DNA of 52,545 nucleotides from Rickettsiaceae bacterium 4572_127 (GCA_002084505.1 NBLK01000002.1:1-52545); one strand, 5' to 3'. Positions 4,155 through 52,158 are shown, counted from the first letter of the stretch. A program made the numbers and translations. Notes: generated from the letters alone by a model not told the origin.

Positions 4155-4162
4155 TAAAAAAT

Positions 4163-4406
4163 GTCATTCCTGCGAAGGCAAGAATCTCTCAATACAGAAT
4201 CTTTTTACTCTCTATAAAAACAAAAAACGATGGAGAAAATCCGCACCTAATATATCTATTGTAGGGGCATCCCTTGTGGGTGCCCTAAAAAACTGTCATT
4301 CCTGCGGAGGCAGGAATCTCACCGAACCGAATCCTTCTTCCTTGCTTATCACCCTCCCCTTGTGGGAGGGTCAAAATATCTTTAGATATTTTGGGGAGGG
4401 GTAAAA
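4163..4406 (+). repeat. cluster of palindromic repeat modules (A, A, B)
   Basis: Module A gtcattcctgcgaaggcaagaatctc at 4163-4188 and 4295-4320. A small hairpin ggggcatcccttgtgggtgccc lies near 4263-4285. Module B ttatcaccctccccttgtgggagggtcaaaatatctttagatattttggggaggggtaaaa at 4346-4406 abuts the xerD stop. ORF 4144-4404 is a translation artefact of these repeats. Confidence 0.85.
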
Positions 4407-21745: not shown

Positions 21746-22092
21746 CAGACTCGGTCTTCACCTCGCCCCTTGCGGGAGAGGTCGAGCGAAGCTCGAGTGA
21801 GGGGTATCAAAAAAAAGTCATTCCTGCGAAAGCAGGAATCTCACCTAATCGAATCTTTATTACTTATCACCCGCCACTTATGGGCGGGGTAAAAAATCTC
21901 ACCCCAGACTCGTCATTGCGAGAATTTTTATGAAATAAAAATCGTGGTAATCCCACAAGTTGTTAACTCCATCATGAGATTGCCACGCTCACTTCGTGAA
22001 ACAGCTCGCAATGACGAGCCTAGGGTGGAATTGCTTCACTTTACTATCGTAAACGGAGGAACAATGACGAGTTTGTAGGGAGGGGTAAAATC
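21746..22092 (+). repeat. cluster of palindromic repeat modules (C, A, B-variant, long gtcattgcgag hairpin, B tail)
   Basis: C at 21746-21806 (cacctcgccccttgcgggagaggtcgagcgaagctcgagtgaggggtat). A at 21817-21842. B-variant at 21864-21896. 14-nt arms ctcgtcattgcgag (21909-21922) and ctcgcaatgacgag (22005-22018). gtagggaggggtaaaatc at 22075-22092 abuts the dprA stop. Confidence 0.85.
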
Positions 22093-24199: not shown

Positions 24200-24332
24200 A
24201 AAGAAAAGAAGTTCGATTCGGTGAGATTCCTATTTCGAGCCTCGGTCTTCACCTCGCCCCTTGCGGGAGAGGTCGAGCGAAGCTCGGGTAAGGGGTATAA
24301 AAAAATGTCATTCCTGCGAAGGCATTCTTCTC
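24200..24332 (+). repeat. cluster of palindromic repeat modules (truncated A', C, degenerate A)
   Basis: gttcgattcggtgagattcc (a truncated inverted A tail). C at 24237-24298. A at 24307-24332 with a broken stem (ggcattcttc). Confidence 0.8.
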
Positions 24333-24429
24333 ACAATACAGAATCATTTTTTATTTGATTCCCAAGTTATAAAAAAATCATTGCACTTTATGTAAAACAT
24401 CTTTACTTTATCTGTAAGGAGAATAAAAA

Positions 24430-26101: not shown

Positions 26102-26700
26102 CAGACTCAATTTGCTAAATCTTTTTACCTCGCCCCTTGCGGGAGAGGTCGAGCGAAGCTCGGGTGAGGGGTATAAAAAAATGGCTCTGTTCCATCAGCT
26201 TTTCAAAAGAAAACCTTGTAAGCGACATATTGTGGAATATAGCCAAAAAAATGTCATTCCTGCGAAGGCAAGAATCTCACAATACAGAATTTTTCTTACT
26301 TTCTTGCTTATCACCCTCCCCTTGTGGGAGGGTTAATAACAGCTTTAGCTGTTTTGGGGAGGGGTAAAAATTACATTTCCATAAAATTTCAACCTCAAAA
26401 TCAAAAAAAACACCCCTCACCCTGTCCCTCTCCCGCAAGGGGAGAGGCGACGAAACACTTAATGCTTTCTTCTTTTTCTCACTGGTTTTTATGTTTTGGT
26501 TTTTTGTAGAAAATTTTTACTAACTATAAACCTAGTTTTATAGCCGTTGTTTAGTTTTAGGGGTTAGTGAGGTAATTTACCCCTCCCCAAAATATCTGAC
26601 GATATTTTGACCCTCCCACAAGGGGAGGGTGATAAGTAAGAAAAGAAAGCAAGAAAGAAAAGATTCTATTCGGTTAAATTCCCACCTTCGCAGGAATGAC
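26102..26700. repeat. 600-bp mirrored composite of repeat modules (C, A, B, D, E, B', A')
   Basis: C 26102-26174. A 26253-26278. B 26308-26370. D 26411-26513. E 26524-26545. Reverse B 26577-26637. Reverse A 26675-26700. The three ORFs called here (26112, 26137, 26324) are artefacts. Confidence 0.85.
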
Positions 26701-38681: not shown

Positions 38682-39209
38682 ATGAAAAAATACAGAATAA
38701 TTTTAATTCCACAAATGGATGCATGGGAAGAGTTTTATAAAATAACAGAATCTTTATCAGAGATTTCAGATGGATATTTAATGTCTTCGAATAGCTCTGT
38801 TCCACACATAACGCTTAGTAAATTCGAAGCAGAAGACAAGGCTGTTGAAAAAATATGGAATAGTTGCAGAATGACTGTTGTCCCAAATGTAGAATTCTAC
38901 GGTCTAACTTTCGCAAAAAGAAAAGTTAATTGGGCGTTAGTTCTAACAAAAAGAACTGAAATTGTGCCTTTTCAAAAGAAAGTTTATGAAATTTTAAACA
39001 CACACAACTTAAAATTAGATGAAATAATAAGGGAGAGTTATATACCGCATCTTACTTTAATTAGAACACCATTAAGCGAATTAGAAATAATAAAAAAACT
39101 AGGAGATTTTTCATTCCTATTTGAAAAAAAATTAAAATGGAATTTAGTAATTGCAAGGTCTGGAAAATATGGAAAAATAAAAGAGAAAGATACTGTATAC
39201 TCCACATAA
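38682..39209 (+). CDS. 2H phosphoesterase (LigT / 2'-5' RNA ligase-like)
   Basis: Two HxTx motifs (VPHITLSKF and IPHLTLIRT) at the expected spacing. Its ATG directly abuts the metG stop. Confidence 0.65.
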   Translation: MKKYRIILIPQMDAWEEFYKITESLSEISDGYLMSSNSSVPHITLSKFEAEDKAVEKIWNSCRMTVVPNVEFYGLTFAKRKVNWALVLTKRTEIVPFQKKVYEILNTHNLKLDEIIRESYIPHLTLIRTPLSELEIIKKLGDFSFLFEKKLKWNLVIARSGKYGKIKEKDTVYST

Positions 39210-39252
39210 CATATAAGGGCAAGTAAAAACATTATGAGGAGTGGATAACAAA

Positions 39253-40257: not shown

Positions 40258-40787
40258 TGAAAGCAATAAAAAATAGATTTAGTGTTTCCGAATTTACAGA
40301 TAAAAAGATTTCAAAAGAAGATTTGATTGAAATTCTAAATTGCGGGATTTTAGCCCCATCAGTAAAAAATACTCAGCCATGGTTTATGACTATTTTGAGA
40401 CAGGATTCAAAACAAAATTTCAGAGATTTTTTTATAAAAAATTTTAATAAATTAATCGTTCCTGCGGAGACAGAAAATTCACAAAATCGGACTTTTTCCG
40501 CCTTAAAAACGGCTGATACGGTTATTTTGGTTTGGAATACATCTAAAAATAAATGGGCTGGCTCAGAACATTCTTGCTGTGCTTTGATGCAAAACATTCT
40601 CACAAAGGCTACTGATTTGGACATAGGAAGCCTGTGGATTAGTGATATTCTTTTGGTAAAAAACGAAATTAAAAAGTATTTTAAAAAAGATTATTCACTC
40701 GTTGGAGCAATAGCATTAGGATATTCAAAACCACAACCAAAACACCGTGGACGAAAATCATTGGAAAAAGTCTGTGAATTTTTATAA
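40257..40787 (+). CDS. nitroreductase family protein
   Basis: RFSVSEFTDKKISKEDLIEILNCGILAPSVKNTQPW is the classic nitroreductase N-terminus. TAATG overlap with the kinase gene. Confidence 0.7.
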   Translation: MKAIKNRFSVSEFTDKKISKEDLIEILNCGILAPSVKNTQPWFMTILRQDSKQNFRDFFIKNFNKLIVPAETENSQNRTFSALKTADTVILVWNTSKNKWAGSEHSCCALMQNILTKATDLDIGSLWISDILLVKNEIKKYFKKDYSLVGAIALGYSKPQPKHRGRKSLEKVCEFL

Positions 40788-41306
40788 TTGAGCTAATATC
40801 TCATCAAGTTCCCTAAAGGAACTCACTTTTATAACATTGATATGAGAAAATTGCTCTATAATTTTCATTTGTGTTTTCCACCGTTTTGGCTGTTTAAATA
40901 GAATCCAAGGAATCATTCTAAAATTGAAACCTTTTGTTGCACCTAGCAATGCACCAGCATGATTTCCTTTAAGCCTACTTCTTTTGAAGAATCGAAATAA
41001 ACATTTGAAGCGATTGGTTTTTATTAAAACAATCGTATCAGCTCTTTTTAATCGCTGAGGCAGGAGTTTTTTATACTGACCATCGATAATCCATTTTTCT
41101 TTTTTGATAAAAGTATCGTGTTTTCTTTTAGTTTCTTCTCGGGAAGCAAGAACCCAATTCGTGTGAGGAATGTGTGCTATTTGGTCAAGATGCAGAACGG
41201 GGAAGTTTAATTTTCGTGCTAATTTTTCTGAAAAAGTTGATTTTCCAGAGTTAGACGGTCCTATAACACAAATCCGATTACCTAATATATATTCATTTCT
41301 TTGCAT
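40782..41306 (-). CDS. P-loop kinase (adenylate kinase / topology-modulation FlaR-like)
   Basis: Walker A (VIGPSNSGKST). 174 aa. Last gene of the minus-strand operon. Its 3' end overlaps the convergent nitroreductase gene by 6 nt. Confidence 0.6.
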   Translation of the reverse strand: MQRNEYILGNRICVIGPSNSGKSTFSEKLARKLNFPVLHLDQIAHIPHTNWVLASREETKRKHDTFIKKEKWIIDGQYKKLLPQRLKRADTIVLIKTNRFKCLFRFFKRSRLKGNHAGALLGATKGFNFRMIPWILFKQPKRWKTQMKIIEQFSHINVIKVSSFRELDEILAQL

Positions 41307-41309
41307 AAA

Positions 41310-42434
41310 CTATTTATCTTTTTTCAATTTTTCATCTAAATAAAGCCCGCTCAATCCCCAGAATTTTTTGAAATTTCCCAGCTCATTTTTATCACTTTTT
41401 TTGCCGCTAAAAACGGCTTTTACGAGTATATTCTTAGGTGTATGAGTGTGTGCTACAAACTCTATAATCTGTGTTTTATAACCAAAAGAATTTAAAGTCA
41501 TACAACGATAAGCATCCGTAACTAGACTCGCTACCCGCTCTTTAATCAACCCATAGGACAGCATCTCTTTTAATTTCTCCGACTTAATTTTAGTGAAAAA
41601 CTCATGCTGACAGCACGGGGCAGAAAGTAATAATTTAACATTCCCCTTGATGGCTTTTGCTATCGTATCGTCCGTAGCAGTATTGCAAGCATGAAGACTA
41701 ATCACAACATCTGGGTTTTTGAAATCATAGTCATCAATAGAACTTTCAATAAAATGCAATTTATCATAACCAAGTTTTTTTGCTATTTTTGAGCATTTTT
41801 CTATAAGCATTTTATTGCTATCAACTCCCGTTATATGCACGCTCCATTTTTTTATTTCCTTTAAGTAATGATATAAGGCGAAAGTTAAATAAGCCTTTCC
41901 GCATCCCATATCTACAATCTCCATTGGAGCGCATTTTGGGAAATCCGCTTGAAAAATCTCTATGAATTTATTTATTTGAATAAATTTGTCCGTTTTGCCT
42001 TTGTAAGGAATTCCTTGCTTGTTTGTAATTTCTAGCTCATGTAGAAACGGATAAAAAACTCCTCGTTGGAAAATATGATTTTTCTTAGAATTATGATCTG
42101 TCGAGACAACTTTTTTCGTAGCAGGCATTTCTTTGCGACGAATTTTTTTACCTACTTTGGAATAGTGAAAATCAGCAGACGGCGTAAACACCATTGCATT
42201 TGTGAATGATTTTTCAAATAAATTGCGGATTGTTTTTTCGGCTTCCTTCAAAGTGAGGTTTTTATGATATGCTTTTTTTTGATCATACGAAGTCATCTGA
42301 TATAGCACTTCATTTTTAGTTTCAAAAGGGCGAATTTCCACCCTGCGAAATTGCTCGCCTTTTATTGCTCCTGTGAGTTTGATAATGGCGAATAAGCCGT
42401 TTTTAGCGAAGAATTCTGCGAATGTTTTTTTCAT
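41310..42434 (-). CDS. class I SAM-dependent methyltransferase (Methyltransf_32 / METTL25-like)
   Basis: Motif I IVDMGCGKAYLTFAL. LHACNTATD and APCCQHEF are, as I recall, characteristic of that family. The N-terminal roughly 150 aa have unknown fold. Confidence 0.6.
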   Translation of the reverse strand: MKKTFAEFFAKNGLFAIIKLTGAIKGEQFRRVEIRPFETKNEVLYQMTSYDQKKAYHKNLTLKEAEKTIRNLFEKSFTNAMVFTPSADFHYSKVGKKIRRKEMPATKKVVSTDHNSKKNHIFQRGVFYPFLHELEITNKQGIPYKGKTDKFIQINKFIEIFQADFPKCAPMEIVDMGCGKAYLTFALYHYLKEIKKWSVHITGVDSNKMLIEKCSKIAKKLGYDKLHFIESSIDDYDFKNPDVVISLHACNTATDDTIAKAIKGNVKLLLSAPCCQHEFFTKIKSEKLKEMLSYGLIKERVASLVTDAYRCMTLNSFGYKTQIIEFVAHTHTPKNILVKAVFSGKKSDKNELGNFKKFWGLSGLYLDEKLKKDK

Positions 42435-42435
42435 T

Positions 42436-42921
42436 TTATTTAAACCTTTTTATCATTTGTAAATGCTCTTTAACATCATCTAGTCCAACCTGAATAGGAT
42501 TCGGATTAAAAACAAATCCACAGGATTTATGTAATTTTATAGATGCTGGATTGTCTTTTTCTACATTACTTAATATTGTAAATTTCTTTTTATTGGAGAC
42601 AAGTCTACAGACTTCATTTAAAAACAGTTTGCCAAAACCTTTTCCACGAAAAAAAGGAGAGACTAAAATAGGTTCAATTAAATATGTGTGTTCTAGGACA
42701 AGCGGTAGGCGAACATAACCAATTAGCTTTTTTTCAAGAAACATTCCGTGTAATAAAATATCTTTTTTTGAGATTGCTTCTTCTAAAAAATTATTTTGGA
42801 TTTTGAAGATTTTTTCAGTTCTTGCTTTTTCAGGTCTATCGCTCATAACGAGAGAGTTTAATTGATCTAAATTTTTTTTATTTTTTACGGATTTAAACGA
42901 GGGCAATAGCTTTTTTTTCAT
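42436..42921 (-). CDS. GNAT family N-acetyltransferase
   Basis: VSPFFRGKGFGKLFL (Q/RxxGxG/A) and SIKLHKSCGF. Confidence 0.7.
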   Translation of the reverse strand: MKKKLLPSFKSVKNKKNLDQLNSLVMSDRPEKARTEKIFKIQNNFLEEAISKKDILLHGMFLEKKLIGYVRLPLVLEHTYLIEPILVSPFFRGKGFGKLFLNEVCRLVSNKKKFTILSNVEKDNPASIKLHKSCGFVFNPNPIQVGLDDVKEHLQMIKRFK

Positions 42922-42924
42922 GTT

Positions 42925-44109
42925 TTATCTCTTTTTTAAGGTTGCTATTAAAACAATATACACACTTAAAATTACAAAAGCTAGAACAATAAATCCAGTT
43001 TGATAAGAAGTTTTGTGAATTAAAACCCCAATCCCACCAGCAAAAAAAGCTGAGACTATTTGCATCATTTGTCCCCTCACAGATAGAAGAGTTGCTTTGA
43101 ATCGGCTTTTACCTATCTTTTGAAGCAGAAGTGTATTTTCAATTTGTGAGACTCCCCATTCTAAAGAATTTAGCAAAATAAATATCGTTGCCACAAAATA
43201 CAGATTACTGAAAAACCCAAGGACACCGACTAGGATAATATAAGTGATAAACTTAAATGTTACGAGCGATTTTAGAGAGAAATATCTTTGAAATCGTCCG
43301 CTAAAAAATAACAATAAGGATGCGATTCCTCTTCCCACTCCTAATAAAATACCAAAATAGATAACAGGGATTTCGAGAAGTTCTTGGTAAGGTCCTCTAA
43401 AAGCACTTAATGCATATCCTACTCCGGAGATGAAAGCAAAGAAAATAGCCCATTTTAGAAATCCGCTTTCTTTACCTTTTTGTATAACTTGTTTGAAATT
43501 AGTCGCTGAAATTTCTTTGATTTTTTCTGCTTTTATTTTTGGAGAAACGAACGAAATGGCTGTTATTAAGCCTATAAAATCTATGAATAAAGCAATTAAA
43601 AAAGGCAGTCTATAACTTATATTTACCAAGAGTGGGACTAAAATTGTTAGAATTATTGGAACAGCAAAACCGATTGATTTAATCTTTCCCATCACTTTGC
43701 CGTAGTCATTTTCTCGTTTAAGTGTAATTAAAGTTTCGTGCATAAAGGCACTAGCGGTTCCACTCGTAAATGCAAAAGCAAGACTCAAAAGTATAGACCC
43801 AAAGGATAAGAAATAAAGATTGGTTCCCATTAAAAAACAAGATGTTGAAAGGATCATGAAAATCCTAGAAAGAACTAATGTTCTTTTATGACCTATTTTG
43901 TCCGAAAGATAACCGCTAGGAATTTCAAATAAAAAGCCTGCGAGATTCCCAAGTAATAAAATCACTCCAACATTTTGAATCGTAATATCTGGAATGGTCA
44001 TGTAATAGACACTCAAAATAGCAACGAAAATCCGCTTGTTAGTTATGTTAAAAATCGTAAATTTCCAAATGTTACTTTCTAGCATTTTTTCTCCAAAGTA
44101 ATTGAACAT
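42925..44109 (-). CDS. MFS transporter
   Basis: About 12 hydrophobic segments. MFS motif A-like GYLSDKIGHKRTL. The start could instead be ATG 44085. Confidence 0.7.
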   Translation of the reverse strand: MFNYFGEKMLESNIWKFTIFNITNKRIFVAILSVYYMTIPDITIQNVGVILLLGNLAGFLFEIPSGYLSDKIGHKRTLVLSRIFMILSTSCFLMGTNLYFLSFGSILLSLAFAFTSGTASAFMHETLITLKRENDYGKVMGKIKSIGFAVPIILTILVPLLVNISYRLPFLIALFIDFIGLITAISFVSPKIKAEKIKEISATNFKQVIQKGKESGFLKWAIFFAFISGVGYALSAFRGPYQELLEIPVIYFGILLGVGRGIASLLLFFSGRFQRYFSLKSLVTFKFITYIILVGVLGFFSNLYFVATIFILLNSLEWGVSQIENTLLLQKIGKSRFKATLLSVRGQMMQIVSAFFAGGIGVLIHKTSYQTGFIVLAFVILSVYIVLIATLKKR

Positions 44110-44644
44110 ATCCAGTTTTTACATGTTCAAAAACGGTGATTCCAGCGTTTTTCAAAAAATTATCAATTAAATCAAATGCCTCTCTTGGGCTTTTTGCTGA
44201 TGAGCTGTTGTATTCAATTTCTACAAAATCACCAAGTCCAACAACATTATCAAACTCGACTAAAAGTTCTCCACAAGAATAAGAGCGACGAGTTTTTTCT
44301 ACTTTTGCAGTTTCCTTAAATCCAAGAGTTCTAAAAATTTTCTCTGTTGATTTTCCATCAGATAAATTTGATTCGTATTCATCGGCGTATGCAGGCATTT
44401 CAGGTGTTTCTTTATGCCAGTTTTTATAGGTAATTGAATCTCCCTTTTCAGAAAAACGAACACGAATAAATTCCTTAGCATCCAAACCGTCTTTCGTGTC
44501 AAATAAAAATGTTTTATGGGGTGGATCAAAGTAAACATCAGTCTGTTTTTTTTCTCCAAGAAATTTCCCATTAGCAGATAAATAACTTAGTAGCAACTTT
44601 TTGTCTTTTAATTTGATAGTAATTTCAATTTCTAGGTCTTTCAT
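44072..44644 (-). CDS. CYTH / triphosphate tunnel metalloenzyme (class IV adenylyl cyclase CyaB-like)
   Basis: N-terminal ExExK signature (LEIEITIKL), later beta-strand acidic/basic pairs (FIRVRF, VEKTRRSY, GDFVEIEY). 190 aa. Confidence 0.65.
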   Translation of the reverse strand: MKDLEIEITIKLKDKKLLLSYLSANGKFLGEKKQTDVYFDPPHKTFLFDTKDGLDAKEFIRVRFSEKGDSITYKNWHKETPEMPAYADEYESNLSDGKSTEKIFRTLGFKETAKVEKTRRSYSCGELLVEFDNVVGLGDFVEIEYNSSSAKSPREAFDLIDNFLKNAGITVFEHVKTGYVQLLWRKNARK

Positions 44645-45054
44645 TATAATTCCTTTAATATATCTTCAGTTCTTTCTACTACATCGTCTTCATATTCTAA
44701 TTTTTCGAAAGAGAGTGGTTTTATTGATGCTAAATTTTTCTTTAATGAGAAAAATTTAACGGCTTTTTTAAGTTTTTTTGCTAGTTTTATTTCCTCAATA
44801 ACGCCATCTGAAATAATTCCAAAAACCCAAATTTCGTCAGAAACATGAACATAGGAATTATTGCCTTGCCGAATGGTGTCTCGATCAACAGAGTCTAATA
44901 AAAAATATTCAAACGACATAAACGGATTTATAGGAACATATTTTTCGAGTAATACGAACTTGCAAATAAACTGTCTCATAAAAAAGGTATCTTTTGAATG
45001 AGCTGTATAAACAACAGGAAGTCTTTTGTGTAATTTTGATGCCGGGTGATTCAT
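44644..45054 (-). CDS. hypothetical protein, possibly nucleoside 2-deoxyribosyltransferase-like Rossmann fold
   Basis: 136 aa. The pattern VVYTAHS...PINPF...DEIWVFGIISDGVIEEIKLAKKLKKAVKFF resembles the DUF4406/NDT-like layout as I remember it. Shares 1 nt with the CYTH start. Confidence 0.35.
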   Translation of the reverse strand: MNHPASKLHKRLPVVYTAHSKDTFFMRQFICKFVLLEKYVPINPFMSFEYFLLDSVDRDTIRQGNNSYVHVSDEIWVFGIISDGVIEEIKLAKKLKKAVKFFSLKKNLASIKPLSFEKLEYEDDVVERTEDILKEL

Positions 45055-45055
45055 T

Positions 45056-45613
45056 TTATTCCCTTTCTTTTAAAAAAAATTTTAGTTTTTTCATAAATCG
45101 TTCAAAATGTTCGTCAGTTTTCCCATAAGGAATTTTATCAAAATCAAACCACTTTATACTATGAAATTCTTCTTCGGCATATTTAAAATCCTGTTTGCAA
45201 TTTCCATTCATTAGATACCAAAGTGAAACATCAGTGTGGATATATTCAGGATTTCCGACAGTTTCAGTTACTGTTAAAAACAGCGGAATAGCCGTTATTA
45301 AGCTCGGTTTTACAGATAATTCTTCTTCTAATTCTCGCTCAGCAGTAATCTGCGGAAACTCATTTATCTCAACATGTCCGCCTGTCGGCAACCATAATCC
45401 AGATTTTTTATGCTCAGTTAAAAGAATCTTTTTATTTTTTATATCGATTACAACAGCATAAGAAACTAAATGCTTTGGAGGTGTTTTATGTTTTTTAATT
45501 CTAAAAATATCAGCCCCAGAATCAATCCAGTCTAATGCATTTTGAATATGATCGCTTTCTAAATTATCAATAGGTGAAATTTGTTTTATTAAATTGTAGA
45601 TTTGATTTCGCAT
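45056..45613 (-). CDS. NUDIX hydrolase
   Basis: Nudix box GGHVEINEFPQITAERELEEELSV. Start moved to ATG 45613 (AAGGAG 6 nt upstream). Confidence 0.75.
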   Translation of the reverse strand: MRNQIYNLIKQISPIDNLESDHIQNALDWIDSGADIFRIKKHKTPPKHLVSYAVVIDIKNKKILLTEHKKSGLWLPTGGHVEINEFPQITAERELEEELSVKPSLITAIPLFLTVTETVGNPEYIHTDVSLWYLMNGNCKQDFKYAEEEFHSIKWFDFDKIPYGKTDEHFERFMKKLKFFLKERE

Positions 45614-45743
45614 GAGAACTCCTTTTTTACGAACTAAAATCATAATAAAGCAGAGTCGAAATAAAGCAAGCTGTTTTTCACTGTTCCACATAATATATAA
45701 CAGAACATAAAATTATTATGGGGAATGATGTCTTTTTATTTTC

Positions 45744-45772
45744 TTGACTCAGGGATAGAAATGTTTTATAAT
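45744..45772 (+). promoter_or_regulatory. near-consensus sigma70 promoter of tRNA-His
   Basis: TTGACT (45744-45749), a 17-nt spacer, then TATAAT (45767-45772), 11 nt before the tRNA 5' end. Confidence 0.6.
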
Positions 45773-45783
45773 TTTGGACTATA

Positions 45784-45861
45784 TGGCGGGTGTAGCTCAG
45801 TTGGTTAGAGCGCTGGTTTGTGGTACCGGAGGCCGCGGATTCGAGTTCCGTCACTCGCCCC
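45784..45861 (+). tRNA. tRNA-His (anticodon GTG)
   Basis: Hand-folded cloverleaf. Acceptor GCGGGTG/CACTCGC, D arm GCTC/GAGC, anticodon stem CTGGT/ACCGG with loop TTGTGGT, T arm GCGGA-TTCGAGT-TCCGT. Encoded G-1 (45784) opposite C73, and an encoded CCA. Confidence 0.85.
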
Positions 45862-45875
45862 ATATTAAAAATATG

Positions 45876-46916
45876 TTAAAATTTATAATCCTTGGTTTCA
45901 AATAACTCTTCTGCTGTTGTAGCTATTTTAACTTTATCTTTTTCTAAAAGTGCTGGATATTCTAATTTTAGTTTTCCATAAAAGGCTTGTAAAAAAGGCT
46001 CAGACGGATCAGTAGGATCGCCCCATTTAGCCTCTTCTATTATATTAGGTCTTTTGTATTTTTTGATAATACCAACCCAAAATTTTTTCCTCTTTTCCAT
46101 TTGCTGATAAACATAAGTTGCCCCAATTCCTTCAATTTCATTAACATCATTTCGATAAATCACTTTATAGACCAGATGCTCCGTTAAGTTAGAAGTAAAC
46201 CAAATTTCAATCTCTTCCCCTGTCTTAAATCTAGCAAGTTTAATTTTTTCTACATATTCCATTTTGTTTTTCTGAGCCGTTCCTATTATACATCCCTCAA
46301 TCGCCTTAGGAGTTTTTGCTCCTTTTTGCCGGCAGGAATAATTATAATTGTGCTTATATAATACCGGAATTTTTGTTTTCATTTCAATAATACTATATCC
46401 CATTTTAGGAAAAATATATGATTTCAAATAAGGATAAGTCGCTTCAAGAGAAATTCCCGCAATATCAAAAGATTGAATAATAGGTAACTTGTCGGCTAGC
46501 AAACTGTCTTCAATTTGAGTTTTTTTATCATTAGAGTTGCCGATAAGATTGTCTAAAAATCCCTGCCCAAAAACAGAGGAGGAAATAAAAATAAAAACAC
46601 AAAGTAGTTTTTTTATTTTACCCCTCCCCAAAATAGCAGAGCTATTTTGACCCTCCCGCAAGGGGTGGGTGATATAGTCAAAACAATTAAGGTTGTCCGC
46701 AGAATTGCCAAAATTTTTCGAGGTATTTTCAATCGTTTTTTGAAAATTGTATATCATACATTTTTCGAAAAACTGTTGCAAAAGAACCGAAAAAGAAGGC
46801 GAGTATGCGTATAATTTTTTTAAAAAAACACTGCAAGAAAAAAAGAAAAAAAGAACAAGATTAATTGTTTTGACTATAAGTCGGAAAAGTGCGAATAAGC
46901 CGTTTTTAAGCATCAT
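45876..46916 (-). CDS. hypothetical secreted protein (start uncertain; a repeat module lies in-frame)
   Basis: The longest ORF is 346 aa, but codons about 81-100 are a reverse B repeat module (HPLREGQNSSAILGRG). The module is followed by a perfect signal-peptide-like KIKKLLCVFIFISSSVFG. An in-frame TTG at 46631 inside the repeat would give a 251-aa secreted protein. Confidence 0.55.
   Translation of the reverse strand: MMLKNGLFALFRLIVKTINLVLFFFFSCSVFLKKLYAYSPSFSVLLQQFFEKCMIYNFQKTIENTSKNFGNSADNLNCFDYITHPLREGQNSSAILGRGKIKKLLCVFIFISSSVFGQGFLDNLIGNSNDKKTQIEDSLLADKLPIIQSFDIAGISLEATYPYLKSYIFPKMGYSIIEMKTKIPVLYKHNYNYSCRQKGAKTPKAIEGCIIGTAQKNKMEYVEKIKLARFKTGEEIEIWFTSNLTEHLVYKVIYRNDVNEIEGIGATYVYQQMEKRKKFWVGIIKKYKRPNIIEEAKWGDPTDPSEPFLQAFYGKLKLEYPALLEKDKVKIATTAEELFETKDYKF
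46617..46675 (-). repeat. B repeat module (reverse orientation) inside the 45876-46916 ORF
   Basis: ttttacccctccccaaaatagcagagctattttgaccctcccgcaaggggtgggtgata. Confidence 0.85.
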
Positions 46917-49419: not shown

Positions 49420-49440
49420 TTTTTTCCTTTTTATACTTTC

Positions 49441-49500
49441 TTATCACCCACCCCTTGTGGGAGGGTCAAAATAGTTCTTACTATTTTGGGGCGGGGTAAA
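49441..49500 (+). repeat. B repeat module upstream of valS
   Basis: ttatcacccaccccttgtgggagggtcaaaatagttcttactattttggggcggggtaaa. Confidence 0.85.
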
Positions 49501-49674: not shown

Positions 49675-49797
49675 AATTATCCTTTTTATTTAGTCTCATT
49701 TTAACTATAAAGAGTTATTAGAAATAAATCAAGAAAGGATTTTACAGAGAAGTCCACATAATATATTTAGAGACTTCACAATGTTATGTGGAATAAC

Positions 49798-51468
49798 CTA
49801 TCCTCGTTCAAAGATTTTATCCAGAAGTTTGCGATCTAATTTCATAACAGTAGGGCGACCATGATTACACTGCATTGCTCTTGGAGTCTCTCCAATCTGC
49901 TTTAACAATTCATTCATTTCAGGAATAGAAAGCGACTGCCCTGCTCTAATTGATCCATGGCAAGCAATAGTCCCACGAATTTTATGAATGATTTTTTGAT
50001 GTTCTTTTGCAATATCATTGGTTTCTAATTCTGCGGAAATTTTTTGAAAAAGCTCAATCGGAGTTATGTATTTCAAAAAAGCAGGAATTTCTTTTATAGC
50101 AATTTTAGTCTCATCAATCTGCTCAATCACAAAGCCCGTTTCCGCAAAAGATTTTTTTTCTAGCAATAATTTTTCAATCGCCTCAGGGGTAGAAATAAAA
50201 ATCTCAGGCAGTAAAAGTTGCTGACGAATGATTTTGCGAGACTGAATTTTTTCTAAAACAATTCGCTCATGAGAAGCATGCTGATCTATAATAAACCATC
50301 CATCTTGGCTTTGAGAAATAATATAAGTGTTATGAAGCTGAAAACGAGCAATACCAAATTGAGACGAAATATCGCTCTCCAAAATTATATCTTCATCCGA
50401 AATCTTTCCGCCTGCAAAAGAAGCCTGAGGGTAAGAAAAAGGAGTTTCTTTTATTTCCGAAATACCCGCATCAGCCGTTTTTACAGTAGAAAAAACATGA
50501 TTTTCAAAAGTTGTTTTTCCTAATTCTCGTTTGATAGTGCCAATAATTAATTGCTTCAAAATAGCCTGATTTCTAAACTTCACTTCTGTCTTAGCAGGAT
50601 GCACATTTACATCTATCTCGCTCTCGGGAACTTTTAGATTCAAAACTAAAACTGGATAGCGATCATACGCCATCACATCGAAATAACATTGTCTAAGGAT
50701 AGCAAATAAAAATTTATCTTTTAGAAATCGCCCATTTACAAAAACAAAAAAACTTCTGGAATTGTGCTTATAATAAATCGGTTTTCCAATTAAACCTGAA
50801 ATGCTGTAATCCTCAATCGAGTTGCTTATGGAAAGTGAATTAGCGATAAAGTCTGCACCTAGTATTTTTTTAGCTCGATTCGTTAAGTCTGTTTTTTCAA
50901 ATAGTAAATTATTTAATTGAAGCTTTATAGTTGGATTTCCGATTGCGAATCTTTTTACAATTTCATTTATAGCACCTTGTTCTGCTCGTGTAGATCGCAA
51001 AAATTTCAAGCGAGCAGGGATTGCATAAAATAAATCTGTGATTTCAATTGTAGTTCCATGAGAGCGAGCCGATGGTTTTATGGATAAGATTTTTCCGCTG
51101 GCGACGATCATTTCCCAGCTGGATTCGTTATTTGAAGTTGTGATTTTCATGCGAGATGCGGATGCGATTGATGCTAGTGCTTCGCCACGAAATCCGAACG
51201 AGCAGATGTTGAATAAGTCTTCGTCAGGGATTTTAGAGGTTGCATGGCGGAGAATTGATTTTTCTAAATCTTCTCGTGGCATTCCTTTTCCGTTGTCGGC
51301 GATTGTTAGTTTGTTCTTTCCACCTTCTTCCGTGTTGATTTTGATTTCAGTAGCTTCAGCATCGAGAGAGTTTTCTATCAATTCTTTTAGAATCGTAGCA
51401 GGGCGGTCAGACACCTCCCCTGCACAAATCTGGTTAATTAAATGGTCTGGTAAAATCCTAATCATCAC
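49798..51468 (-). CDS. mutL: DNA mismatch repair endonuclease MutL
   Basis: N-terminal GHKL ATPase (LINQICAGEVSDRPATILKELIENSLDA, DNGKGM, GFRGEALASI). C-terminal dimerisation domain with QQLLLPE and ACHGSIRAG motifs. Confidence 0.9.
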   Translation of the reverse strand: MMIRILPDHLINQICAGEVSDRPATILKELIENSLDAEATEIKINTEEGGKNKLTIADNGKGMPREDLEKSILRHATSKIPDEDLFNICSFGFRGEALASIASASRMKITTSNNESSWEMIVASGKILSIKPSARSHGTTIEITDLFYAIPARLKFLRSTRAEQGAINEIVKRFAIGNPTIKLQLNNLLFEKTDLTNRAKKILGADFIANSLSISNSIEDYSISGLIGKPIYYKHNSRSFFVFVNGRFLKDKFLFAILRQCYFDVMAYDRYPVLVLNLKVPESEIDVNVHPAKTEVKFRNQAILKQLIIGTIKRELGKTTFENHVFSTVKTADAGISEIKETPFSYPQASFAGGKISDEDIILESDISSQFGIARFQLHNTYIISQSQDGWFIIDQHASHERIVLEKIQSRKIIRQQLLLPEIFISTPEAIEKLLLEKKSFAETGFVIEQIDETKIAIKEIPAFLKYITPIELFQKISAELETNDIAKEHQKIIHKIRGTIACHGSIRAGQSLSIPEMNELLKQIGETPRAMQCNHGRPTVMKLDRKLLDKIFERG

Positions 51469-51781
51469 TTATCCCAAAAGGTAACATTCGTGAATTGCGA
51501 ACAGTTAAAATAACAACTTTTTCTTCTTTTACTATATAAATAATTCTATAATTTTTTTTATAAATGTAATTTCGAACAACTTGATTATTTTTTAATTTGA
51601 GAGTTTTGTTTTCAATGGCTATTGGAAATCTTTCAGGCATTTTTTTTAATGAAAAAATTGCTTTATATAAATTACGGATAAAAGTTTCAGCAAAAAAAAG
51701 TTTATCTTTTGATATAAAAAAATAGATGTTTTCGAGATTTGTCTTTGCTCGGTTTGAAATAACTATTTTATAATTTTGCAT
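51458..51781 (-). CDS. type II toxin, ParE/RelE family
   Basis: 107 aa. The N-terminal pattern YKIVISNRAKTNLENIYFFI and the C-terminal YRIIYIVKEEKVVILTVRNSR fit ParE-like plasmid-stabilisation toxins. Overlaps the antitoxin by 14 nt and the mutL start by 11 nt. Confidence 0.6.
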   Translation of the reverse strand: MQNYKIVISNRAKTNLENIYFFISKDKLFFAETFIRNLYKAIFSLKKMPERFPIAIENKTLKLKNNQVVRNYIYKKNYRIIYIVKEEKVVILTVRNSRMLPFGISDD

Positions 51782-52049
51782 TTTTGAATTTATGTTTTTT
51801 AGCTAATTCAGTAAAGGCTTCATCGAGTGGAGAAACATCACCATTTTTTAAATCTTCTAATCCTTCTTTGATGTTTTTTAAGGTGTCTAAAAGCTCTAAG
51901 TCTTTTGCAATTTTTGAATAAGTATTTGGATCCATAACAACAATTTTTGAGGTCTCATTTAGAGAAATAAGAGACGGTTTTCCGCTCTTTTTTAAGTTGT
52001 TATAAAAGTTAGGTGATTTAATTTCTTCAAATTTTTTATATTCTAACAT
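51768..52049 (-). CDS. type II antitoxin, Phd/YefM-like
   Basis: Start moved to ATG 52049 (AAGGAG 8 nt upstream). KPSLISLNETSKIVVMDPNTYSKI fits the Phd/YefM N-terminal fold. The C-terminal LKNIKEGLEDLKNGDVSPLDEAF tail is common in ParD/Phd-type partners of ParE. Confidence 0.55.
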   Translation of the reverse strand: MLEYKKFEEIKSPNFYNNLKKSGKPSLISLNETSKIVVMDPNTYSKIAKDLELLDTLKNIKEGLEDLKNGDVSPLDEAFTELAKKHKFKNAKL

Positions 52050-52158
52050 AGCATTTCTCCTTTTTATTTTAATGTTAGATAAAAACAATGACAATTTCAA
52101 GGTGAAAAACTTTTTTCTTTATGTTTTTTAAAAACGGCTTTAACATATTTTTATTCTC

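Follow-up and report, generated by a model that had tools for sequence, protein, structure and literature searches.

Tightly packed NUDIX, DUF7768 and CYTH genes in Rickettsiaceae bacterium 4572_127: a plausible cluster of independent nucleotide hydrolases

A pyrophosphatase acting ahead of DNPH1 is the logic of a nucleotide-sanitising route found in mammals, which in humans runs from DCTPP1 to DNPH1. The pairing of DUF7768 proteins with NUDIX or MazG pyrophosphatases recalls this route, and the succession of a NUDIX and a DUF7768 gene, followed by a CYTH gene, in Rickettsiaceae bacterium 4572_127 would contain an analogue of it. We have analysed these three genes within a stretch of 52,545 nt (GCA_002084505.1 NBLK01000002.1:1-52545), the whole of which is called the window in what follows. 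Described enzymes provide the residues against which the proteins can be read. DNPH1, a 2'-deoxynucleoside 5'-phosphate N-hydrolase, has E104 as its nucleophile and D80 as the proposed acid; Y24 makes a hydrogen bond to E104, while S98 and G100 serve as ligands of the 5'-phosphate (PMC10483697). For the CYTH proteins or triphosphate-tunnel metalloenzymes (TTMs), the tunnel motifs RxR, β8 ExE and DxY and the determinants of the two-metal hydrolases have been defined, the aromatic residue of (W/Y)xRxR being the position that stacks on the thiazolium ring in thiamine triphosphatases; the determinants of class IV adenylate cyclases (AC-IV) are HF four residues before ExExK, a small residue for the first Arg of xRxR, and Ala for the second Glu of the β8 ExE (PMC8233210, Vogt et al.).

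Each of the three proteins falls within a known superfamily, and their arrangement is not a known system nor, on present evidence, a system at all. We read the trio as the head of a co-transcribed and shuffling cluster of hydrolases that work independently in nucleotide house-cleaning or salvage, not as a dedicated three-part system, with a probability of roughly 0.55. The trio is a lineage-specific juxtaposition, in which only the pairing of NUDIX-family with DUF7768-family proteins recurs in other organisms. The three genes are the following:

45056..45613, minus strand: NUDIX hydrolase, 185 aa (Pfam NUDIX, 2.6e-14)
44644..45054, minus strand: DUF7768 protein, 136 aa (PF24963, 1.8e-08)
44072..44644, minus strand: CYTH protein or triphosphate-tunnel metalloenzyme, 190 aa (Pfam CYTH, 1.2e-25)

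In near relatives these genes are found in different company, as follows (L numbers designate the loci compared):

L178 (88.5% nucleotide identity between L178:15-726 and window positions 45772-45051, i.e., promoter and NUDIX): homology stops at the start of DUF7768 and the next gene encodes a MazG-family pyrophosphatase
L083 (CYTH 79% identical at the amino acid level): a homologue of the promoter directly before CYTH, then Peptidase_S51, MFS and methyltransferase genes, with no GNAT gene
L093 (NUDIX 68% identical at the amino acid level; same assembly as L083): accD-NUDIX-accA (L093:2784-5036)
L091 (NUDIX 73% identical at the amino acid level): accD-MazG-NUDIX-accA (L091:3639-5410)
L084 (CYTH 60% identical at the amino acid level): CYTH-MazG, methyltransferase absent
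L085 and L086 (CYTH 60% identical at the amino acid level): CYTH followed directly by the methyltransferase

In L083, where the promoter homologue matches the window at 75% (L083:273-382 against 45731-45620), NUDIX and DUF7768 are both missing, as one block, and the MFS gene is syntenic with CYTH, Peptidase_S51 lying in between. The accD and accA genes that flank NUDIX in relatives encode the carboxyltransferase subunits of acetyl-CoA carboxylase, and neither these genes nor MazG were found in the window. A probable relative has LptC/LptD genes, suggesting a diderm bacterium. Judged by these identities, DUF7768 is a newcomer at the locus, because none of its homologues is more than 66% identical while NUDIX has relatives at 91, 73 and 68% and CYTH at 79, 60 and 60%. 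Its base composition is unremarkable; when checked for signs of foreign DNA, the three genes had the same GC content, overall and at third codon positions (GC3), as their neighbours, with no anomaly. What emerges is a set of small nucleotide-hydrolase cassettes (NUDIX, MazG, DUF7768 and CYTH) that change places and often come to lie side by side in varied pairings.

A broader view comes from a census of the neighbours of DUF7768 in 80 loci from species-representative genomes and 80 from metagenomes, belonging to Patescibacteria, DPANN archaea, Streptomyces, Clostridia, Gammaproteobacteria and others. These 160 loci are the best-scoring among at least 625 confirmed matches, so that weaker family members are under-sampled; some of the metagenome loci duplicate genome loci, and the genes in all loci were called as longest open reading frames (ORFs). 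Since phmmer with the window NUDIX and CYTH was too insensitive on the 80 genome loci (a single match for NUDIX), iterated profile hidden Markov models (HMMs) and Pfam censuses of the neighbours were used instead. Not one CYTH ORF was detected within ±6 kb of DUF7768 in the 80 genome loci, even at E <= 1 with the subfamily HMM, nor a CYTH domain in any of the 150 best DUF7768 family representatives. Among the 80 metagenome loci there was one case, a fusion without NUDIX. This Pfam-confirmed DUF7768-CYTH protein of 300 aa (L107:1765-2667) is a singleton cluster with a CYTH of an unrelated subfamily, encoded beside an RFC-like gene on a short and probably archaeal contig, and its N-to-C order is that of the genes in the window. 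NUDIX, on the other hand, neighbours DUF7768 above background. It is adjacent on the same strand in 7 of the 80 genome loci and fused in 1, which puts it in 8 of the 152 slots next to DUF7768; of the 687 genes in these loci that are not adjacent, 6 are NUDIX (odds ratio 6.3, p = 0.0011). With ca. 8 further adjacent cases in the metagenome set, about 10% of DUF7768 loci have NUDIX adjacent or fused; those of the genome set span bacteria of the candidate phyla radiation (CPR), Gammaproteobacteria and DPANN archaea, and the fusions occur in both orders (P0025, P0090 and L063). Other fusion partners of DUF7768 are MazG, type-I phosphoribosyltransferase (PRTase) and HAD, and its neighbours include PNP_UDP_1 and dCTP-deaminase-like proteins. 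The co-occurrence check proposed by the initial annotation therefore came out in favour of NUDIX and against CYTH (1 of 160 loci), and a conserved NUDIX-DUF7768-CYTH trio was found in none of the 160 loci, the relatives being arranged otherwise.

As a separate observation, in 18 Saccharibacteria genomes DUF7768 lies directly after LigA, the NAD-dependent DNA ligase (the loci include L023, L042, L054, L056, L062, L065, L068, L070-L075, L077, L078, L081 and L082), an arrangement that may have been inherited as synteny or may hint at a role connected with nicotinamide mononucleotide (NMN).

The 136-aa middle protein scores 35.0 bits with PF24963 (gathering threshold 26) and is an ordinary stand-alone member of that family, with no difference from it. 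A word-indexed search gave 22 homologues, all with PF24963, and an exhaustive profile search 1284 cluster representatives at E <= 1e-3; the ORF is thus well provided with the conserved homologues whose existence had been in question. Its AlphaFold2 (AF2) model has a predicted local distance difference test score (pLDDT) of 92.5 and a predicted TM-score (pTM) of 0.86, and the top Foldseek matches in the PDB are nucleoside 2-deoxyribosyltransferases (NDTs), DNPH1, ThsB/TIR and MilB (2A0K, 8QC0, 6EVS, 6QAI, 7O62 and, for DNPH1, 8RPT), DNPH1/Rcl and the PF05014 NDTs having the same fold with probability 1.0 and TM-scores of ca. 0.5-0.56. The best matches in the viral library are phage N-deoxyribosyltransferases and proteins annotated as DUF7768, DUF4406 and DUF1937. 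Besides, the protein matches PHROG 355 ("nucleoside 2-deoxyribosyltransferase") at 6.4e-08, and 6 of 150 DUF7768 family representatives match PF05014 directly. We are confident in the predicted flavodoxin-type fold of the NDT/DNPH1 kind, and the resemblance to NDTs that had been suggested for this protein holds up well. In contrast with the fold, there is no significant sequence similarity to proteins of the PDB, in which a search with the 136-aa protein gave nothing up to E = 10. Designed armadillo-repeat proteins came up in the PDB search with the family profile and were discarded as spurious, a repeated weak match to "LWxxGNIAsG". In our literature search DUF7768 appeared in no paper and had no published function, and the combination of NDT, Nudix, SLOG and TIR led to a general review only. 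Some family members carry tandem duplications of DUF7768 (P0014, P0023, P0024, P0026 and P0027, proteins of 223-280 aa in which two stretches match), and one representative has it fused to DUF1653 (P0017).

The conserved residues of the DUF7768 alignment are T17, A18, S20, P41, N43, P44, F45, Y50, R58, N65, N66, D73, E74, W76, F78, G79, D83, G84 and E88. They sit at the C-terminal ends of β-strands, and D73 and E88 are conserved in at least 90% of the family. Two hhalign runs against human DNPH1, the query sequence of which was verified against PDB chains, gave the same correspondence of residues (Y16 with Y24, S20 with S28, D73 with D80, S82 with S98, G84 with G100 and E88 with E104), and we use it as a consistent mapping, not as proof. 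In this weak alignment (E 0.13-0.33) D73 falls on D80 and the stretch S82-D-G-V-I-E-E88 on S98-L-G-V-G-Y-E104, so that a common S-x-G-V-x-x-E motif appears. D73 and E88 are the candidate catalytic residues, and S20, S82 and G84 the candidate ligands of the 5'-phosphate. The match to the catalytic triad of DNPH1 is only partial, as position 16 is Y or F and the equivalent of Tyr24 is therefore not conserved, and the family has motifs of its own (PINPF, Y50, R58, N65-N66 and W76) with no described counterpart in DNPH1 or NDTs.

The NUDIX protein has an intact Nudix box (G79-HVEIN-E85-FPQITAE-R93-E94-L-E-E97-E98-L-S-V against GX5EX7REUXEEXGU), with the penultimate G replaced by S as the sole change. 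In this, and in its typical size, it is like the MutT-like "house-cleaning" pyrophosphatases. It differs from them in a conserved N-terminal extension of ca. 45 aa, in that no NCBIfam equivalog model reaches its cutoff, including those of the NADH-pyrophosphatase and ADP-ribose types, and in that the nearest structure and best PDB match is an uncharacterised Nudix protein (3FCM). The subfamily is large, with 1690 matches at E <= 1e-8.

The CYTH protein (90.9 bits with PF01928, cutoff 23.2) gave a mostly β-stranded AF2 model with a pLDDT of 93.5, in keeping with the eight-stranded tunnel fold of these enzymes. SaTTM (Saci_0718) is the best match both in sequence (phmmer against the PDB, 4.3e-13) and in structure (TM-score 0.74-0.81), and it has the DxY, RxR and ExE motifs, the F/Y plug residues and the determinants of two-metal hydrolases in common with the window protein; identity is ca. 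27%. The initial annotation had reported an ExExK motif in EIEITIK, which is mistaken, as the N-terminus reads E5-I-E7-I-T9-I-K11 and the position of the motif lysine, present in SaTTM, is held by Thr (ExExT). Among 27 aligned members of the subfamily this column has Q in most, T in the four closest and K in none; K11 is not conserved, whereas both glutamates, E5 and E7, are invariant. Also invariant are D36, Y38, R61, R63, K74, E89, E91, K117, R119, D132, E142 and E144. The acidic tunnel residues, whose possible lack had been raised, are hence all present, and the water-positioning motif DxY (D36/Y38) is kept.

Whether such a protein could be a cyclase was the other half of the earlier proposal, which had left the choice between nucleotide cyclase and triphosphatase. 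It resembles AC-IV (CyaB; Yersinia pestis) in the CYTH fold, with a TM-score of ca. 0.62 to the Yersinia enzyme, and it scores 84.3 bits with the NCBIfam model TIGR00318, "class IV adenylate cyclase" (cutoff 57.95). This score conflicts with three motif tests. There is no HF motif, nor room for one, in a protein that starts M-K-D-L-E5; the first Arg of xRxR, where AC-IV would have a small residue, is present and invariant (R61); and the β8 motif reads E142-I-E144, with both glutamates invariant and no Ala at the second. Because HF is absent, the "gatekeeper" Arg kept and the motif ExE and not ExA, the protein should not be called a cyclase, and TIGR00318 evidently also captures hydrolases of the TTM type. 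We predict from motifs and model a two-metal triphosphohydrolase of the SaTTM type; the triphosphatase alternative has thus survived, while the cyclase fails on three of the three determinants. A further trait of the subfamily is an aromatic residue before RxR, F59 in the window (F59-x-R61-x-R63) and W in most members (W-L-R-L-R), where SaTTM has Ala54. The mammalian 25-kDa thiamine triphosphatase shares the CYTH fold, and its (W/Y)xRxR motif would correspond to WxRxR in most members of our subfamily and to FxRxR in the window, but it is distant (TM-score ca. 0.55-0.59), and the window protein is without the ExExK lysine. The subfamily (alignment A5) is mostly from Patescibacteria, and public pipelines label it "class IV adenylate cyclase".

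Put together, the predictions would give the following picture. The NUDIX enzyme would cut a nucleoside di- or triphosphate derivative to the nucleoside 5'-monophosphate. DUF7768 would then break the N-glycosidic bond of that monophosphate to give the free base and (deoxy)ribose-5-phosphate, with Glu88 as nucleophile, Asp73 as acid, and Ser20, Ser82 and Gly84 holding the 5'-phosphate. CYTH would be a two-metal triphosphatase that works apart from the other two and attacks either inorganic triphosphate or an organic triphosphate at its terminal phosphate, with F59 at the position that stacks on the substrate ring in thiamine triphosphatases. The two-step route from nucleotide to nucleoside monophosphate and on to base and ribose-5-phosphate is plausible; the substrates of all three enzymes and the order of the NUDIX and DUF7768 reactions are what we infer.

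The trio makes up the first three genes of a string of seven that runs from 45613 to 40782 in the order NUDIX, DUF7768, CYTH, MFS, GNAT, Methyltransf_32 and P-loop kinase-like, with every junction at 3 nt or less or overlapping. A divergent tRNA-His gene lies upstream, and a convergent plus-strand nitroreductase gene follows the P-loop kinase-like gene. The remaining features of the string are:

45614..45785, minus strand: non-coding region, probable promoter or leader of the seven-gene string, bounded by the divergent tRNA-His gene
42925..44085, minus strand: MFS transporter of 386 aa by the annotated start, or of 394 aa if ATG 44109 is used (MFS_1, 7.5e-21)
42436..42921, minus strand: GNAT acetyltransferase, 161 aa (Acetyltransf_1, 1.3e-12)
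41310..42434, minus strand: S-adenosylmethionine-dependent methyltransferase of the Methyltransf_32 family, 374 aa (PF13679, 5.7e-37)
40782..41306, minus strand: P-loop nucleoside/nucleotide-kinase-like protein ("DNA topology modulation protein"-like), 174 aa (PRK08118, AAA_18, AAA_33; the NCBIfam model PRK08118 at 1.9e-31, under its cutoff)

NUDIX starts at ATG 45613, with a GGAG Shine-Dalgarno sequence 5 nt before it, and the public annotation uses the same start; a longer ORF of 211 aa from 45691 is unlikely. The NUDIX stop (TAA, 45058-45056) is followed by one spacer base and by the ATG of DUF7768 at 45054; in the sequence TAATG the DUF7768 stop and the CYTH start have base 44644 in common; and CYTH, which ends at 44072, overlaps MFS by 14 nt (annotated ATG 44085) or 38 nt (ATG 44109). 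For each downstream gene there is a purine-rich, Shine-Dalgarno-like stretch within the gene before it. These junctions had been described correctly, yet the fixed stoichiometry that was drawn from them does not follow, because tight or overlapping junctions are the genome-wide norm. In the window, which has 32% GC and is ca. 93% coding, 36 of the 53 same-strand junctions have a gap of at most 3 nt or an overlap, with a median of -1 nt (the gene calls are longest-ORF, which inflates the overlaps somewhat), and functionally unrelated genes join just as tightly, e.g., that of valyl-tRNA synthetase (ValRS) and its neighbour. Promoter-like sites inside the string (27 against 21.9 expected) and terminator-like sites (4 against 3.4) are at chance level, and the seven genes are very probably co-transcribed. 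Rfam found the tRNA-His alone in the whole window, and no riboswitch or leader RNA upstream of the string. The flanking genes are of the housekeeping kind (tRNA synthetases, MutL and PGI).

Several other features of the window deserve a record. An element of 40 nt with 9-bp inverted-repeat arms (TCCACATAA-N22-TTATGTGGA) is present in three copies of one orientation, at 39201-39240, 45685-45724 and 49753-49792, against 0.04 expected. The copy at 45685-45724 precedes the NUDIX start by 72 nt and is also close upstream of a promoter-like site of tRNA-His; of the other two, one abuts the start of an APH-like gene and one lies 5 nt past the MutL stop. The role of the element may be regulatory, for instance as an operator. 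There are also families of short intergenic repeats, GC-rich and hairpin-forming and of the REP/RPE type, at 4155-4405, 21747-21923, 24238-24356, 26114-26367, 26577-26647, 46618-46674 and 49429-49500 (examples are GTCATTCCTGCGAAGGCAGGAATC and CACCCTCCCCTTGTGGGAGGGT...GGGGAGGGGT), and such repeats recur upstream of CYTH in L083 with 80-98% identity. A hypothetical ORF of 346 aa at 45876-46916 has no Pfam match, and its longest form crosses the repeat at 46618-46674; one public annotation gives it 293 aa, and its true start is probably further downstream. Finally, at 51458-52100 a small ParE-toxin gene and an overlapping upstream partner, a probable toxin-antitoxin pair, immediately precede mutL and point the same way.

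There are other ways to read the trio. One would be a degradative or sanitising pathway of three steps, particular to this lineage and not concerned with signalling, in which CYTH would take the γ-phosphate off a nucleoside triphosphate, modified or not, or off a thiamine-like triphosphate, NUDIX would bring the di- or triphosphate down to the monophosphate and DUF7768 would free the base. It is true that all three proteins are phosphohydrolase or glycosidase types acting on nucleotides, that the aromatic F59 (W in relatives) is at the ring-stacking position of thiamine triphosphatases, that the fusion L107, independent and probably archaeal, has the same order (its CYTH being of an unrelated subfamily), and that the CYTH/MazG and NUDIX/MazG neighbours in relatives suggest selection for co-expression. 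However, CYTH accompanies DUF7768 in that singleton fusion alone among the 160 loci, the genes are separated in the closest relatives, and a NUDIX enzyme does not need the γ-phosphate to be removed beforehand. We consider this pathway unlikely.

Another alternative is that DUF7768 is a glycohydrolase of NAD+ or NMN (TIR/ThsB-like or an NMN nucleosidase), with NUDIX supplying or removing NMN or ADP-ribose, as part of the recycling of pyridine nucleotides. The fold search also gives ThsB and TIR domains, the ligase that precedes DUF7768 in the 18 Saccharibacteria loci is one that releases NMN, and a 66%-identical homologue adjoins a TIR-TIR-STAND protein. Nevertheless, NDTs and DNPH1 outrank TIR in that search, the ligase neighbourhood is seen in a single phylum, where it may have been inherited as synteny, the MazG, type-I PRTase, PNP and dCTP-deaminase-like partners point to canonical nucleotides, and neither an NADH-pyrophosphatase nor an ADP-ribose equivalog scores above cutoff with the window NUDIX. 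All this makes a role in NAD+ or NMN metabolism quite improbable.

In other genomes DUF7768 has a further partner that bears on a third alternative. A flavin adenine dinucleotide (FAD)-dependent HI0933-like protein is fused to DUF7768 in ca. 29 of 150 representatives, and in the census such a protein adjoins DUF7768 or is fused to it in 8 of 80 genome loci and in ca. 11 of 80 metagenome loci (ca. 19 of 160). The loci are:

FAD-DUF7768 fusions: L012, L043, L069, L079
FAD gene adjacent to DUF7768: L021, L029, L040, L061
Further FAD-DUF7768 loci, fused or adjacent: L110, L112, L155, L160, L169

In six of these loci the next gene was scanned, and it encodes a protein of 570-690 aa with a C-terminal PNP_UDP_1 domain in five (L012, L021, L029, from Streptomyces, L043, and L069, from Clostridiaceae) but not in L061. 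This domain matches the PADLOC candidate model PDC-M60C and the CBASS "PN" effector model in three of three tested, dCTP-deaminase-like genes are found near FAD-DUF7768 loci, and the gene upstream in L069 is PDC-M46B (LmuB-like). The combination of FAD-DUF7768 with PNP looks like an undescribed defence-type module for nucleotide depletion. The trio might then be what is left of an anti-phage module of this kind, or a minimal version of it, such modules occurring elsewhere in defence-island contexts, a view to which the frequency of FAD-DUF7768, the PDC-M60C and CBASS matches of the PNP_UDP_1 partners, the one locus abutting PDC-M46B and the company of the closest homologues of the window DUF7768 (62-66% identical, beside FAD proteins, one of them beside a TIR-STAND protein) all lend something. 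It is very improbable all the same, as the window has no FAD-dependent or PNP partner, in PADLOC-DB the trio has a single match, in which NUDIX weakly hits the candidate model PDC-S07 (2.1e-06), with none for the DUF7768, CYTH or MFS proteins, there is no GC anomaly, and the neighbours are tRNA synthetases, MutL and PGI. Least credible is the set of producer, modifier and degrader of a signal put forward in the initial annotation (CYTH as cyclase, DUF7768 as modifier and NUDIX as degrader at fixed stoichiometry, the MFS protein moving the molecule), which is largely refuted. In its favour, TIGR00318 is above its cutoff, the gene overlaps are real and nucleotide-signalling conflict systems include NDT/TIR-like and NUDIX domains. 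Against it, three of three AC-IV determinants are absent, the overlaps are the genome-wide norm, the trio is unconserved and comes apart in the nearest relatives, the genes around it have housekeeping functions, and there is neither a sensor or effector gene nor any signalling or defence model for DUF7768 or CYTH, PDC-S07 being again the only match.

We come back, then, to the reading of the trio as the head of a cluster of independent hydrolases, against which some points have to be set. Position 16 of DUF7768, the equivalent of DNPH1 Tyr24, is Tyr or Phe about equally across the family, and the hhalign comparisons with human DNPH1 (E 0.33 for the alignment of 22 sequences, 0.13 for that of 152 domain sequences) are insignificant alone. 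The window NUDIX belongs to a subfamily different from that of the usual DUF7768 partner, which makes the pairing analogous, not orthologous. The activities of DUF7768 and of the NUDIX and CYTH subfamilies are predicted ones, and co-transcription is likewise inferred. The L107 fusion, together with the shifting pairings of NUDIX, MazG, CYTH and DUF7768 in relatives, may reflect some functional tie to CYTH.

A wider proposal can be made, although we hold it tentatively and would not call it likely. The DUF7768 proteins may be unrecognised nucleotide N-glycosidases related to DNPH1 that, with NUDIX or MazG, form a widespread two-step device ("dephosphorylate, then deglycosylate") for the destruction of unwanted or surplus nucleotides, especially common in the reduced genomes of CPR bacteria and DPANN archaea. 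The form with FAD and PNP would be the undescribed defence-type module, and the string in the window a lineage-specific version with three enzymes, the CYTH being aromatic-gated and without the ExExK lysine.

Whatever the fate of this wider proposal, the locus has some consequences for how such genes are read. In compact genomes, overlapping start and stop codons are uninformative about stoichiometry or shared function, and it is the comparison with near relatives that separates modules from neighbours, as illustrated by MazG in the DUF7768 slot (L178) and by the promoter leading straight into CYTH (L083). The annotation of the CYTH subfamily as class IV adenylate cyclase is a likely mis-annotation, to be corrected to that of a triphosphatase whose ExEx(Q/T) motif is unusual and whose gate residue is aromatic. 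For DUF7768, a family of ca. 1300 cluster representatives often found in Patescibacteria, DPANN archaea and some phages, there is now a testable proposal, that its members would be DNPH1-like N-glycosidases acting downstream of a Nudix or MazG pyrophosphatase, with D73, E88 and S20/S82 as the candidate residues.

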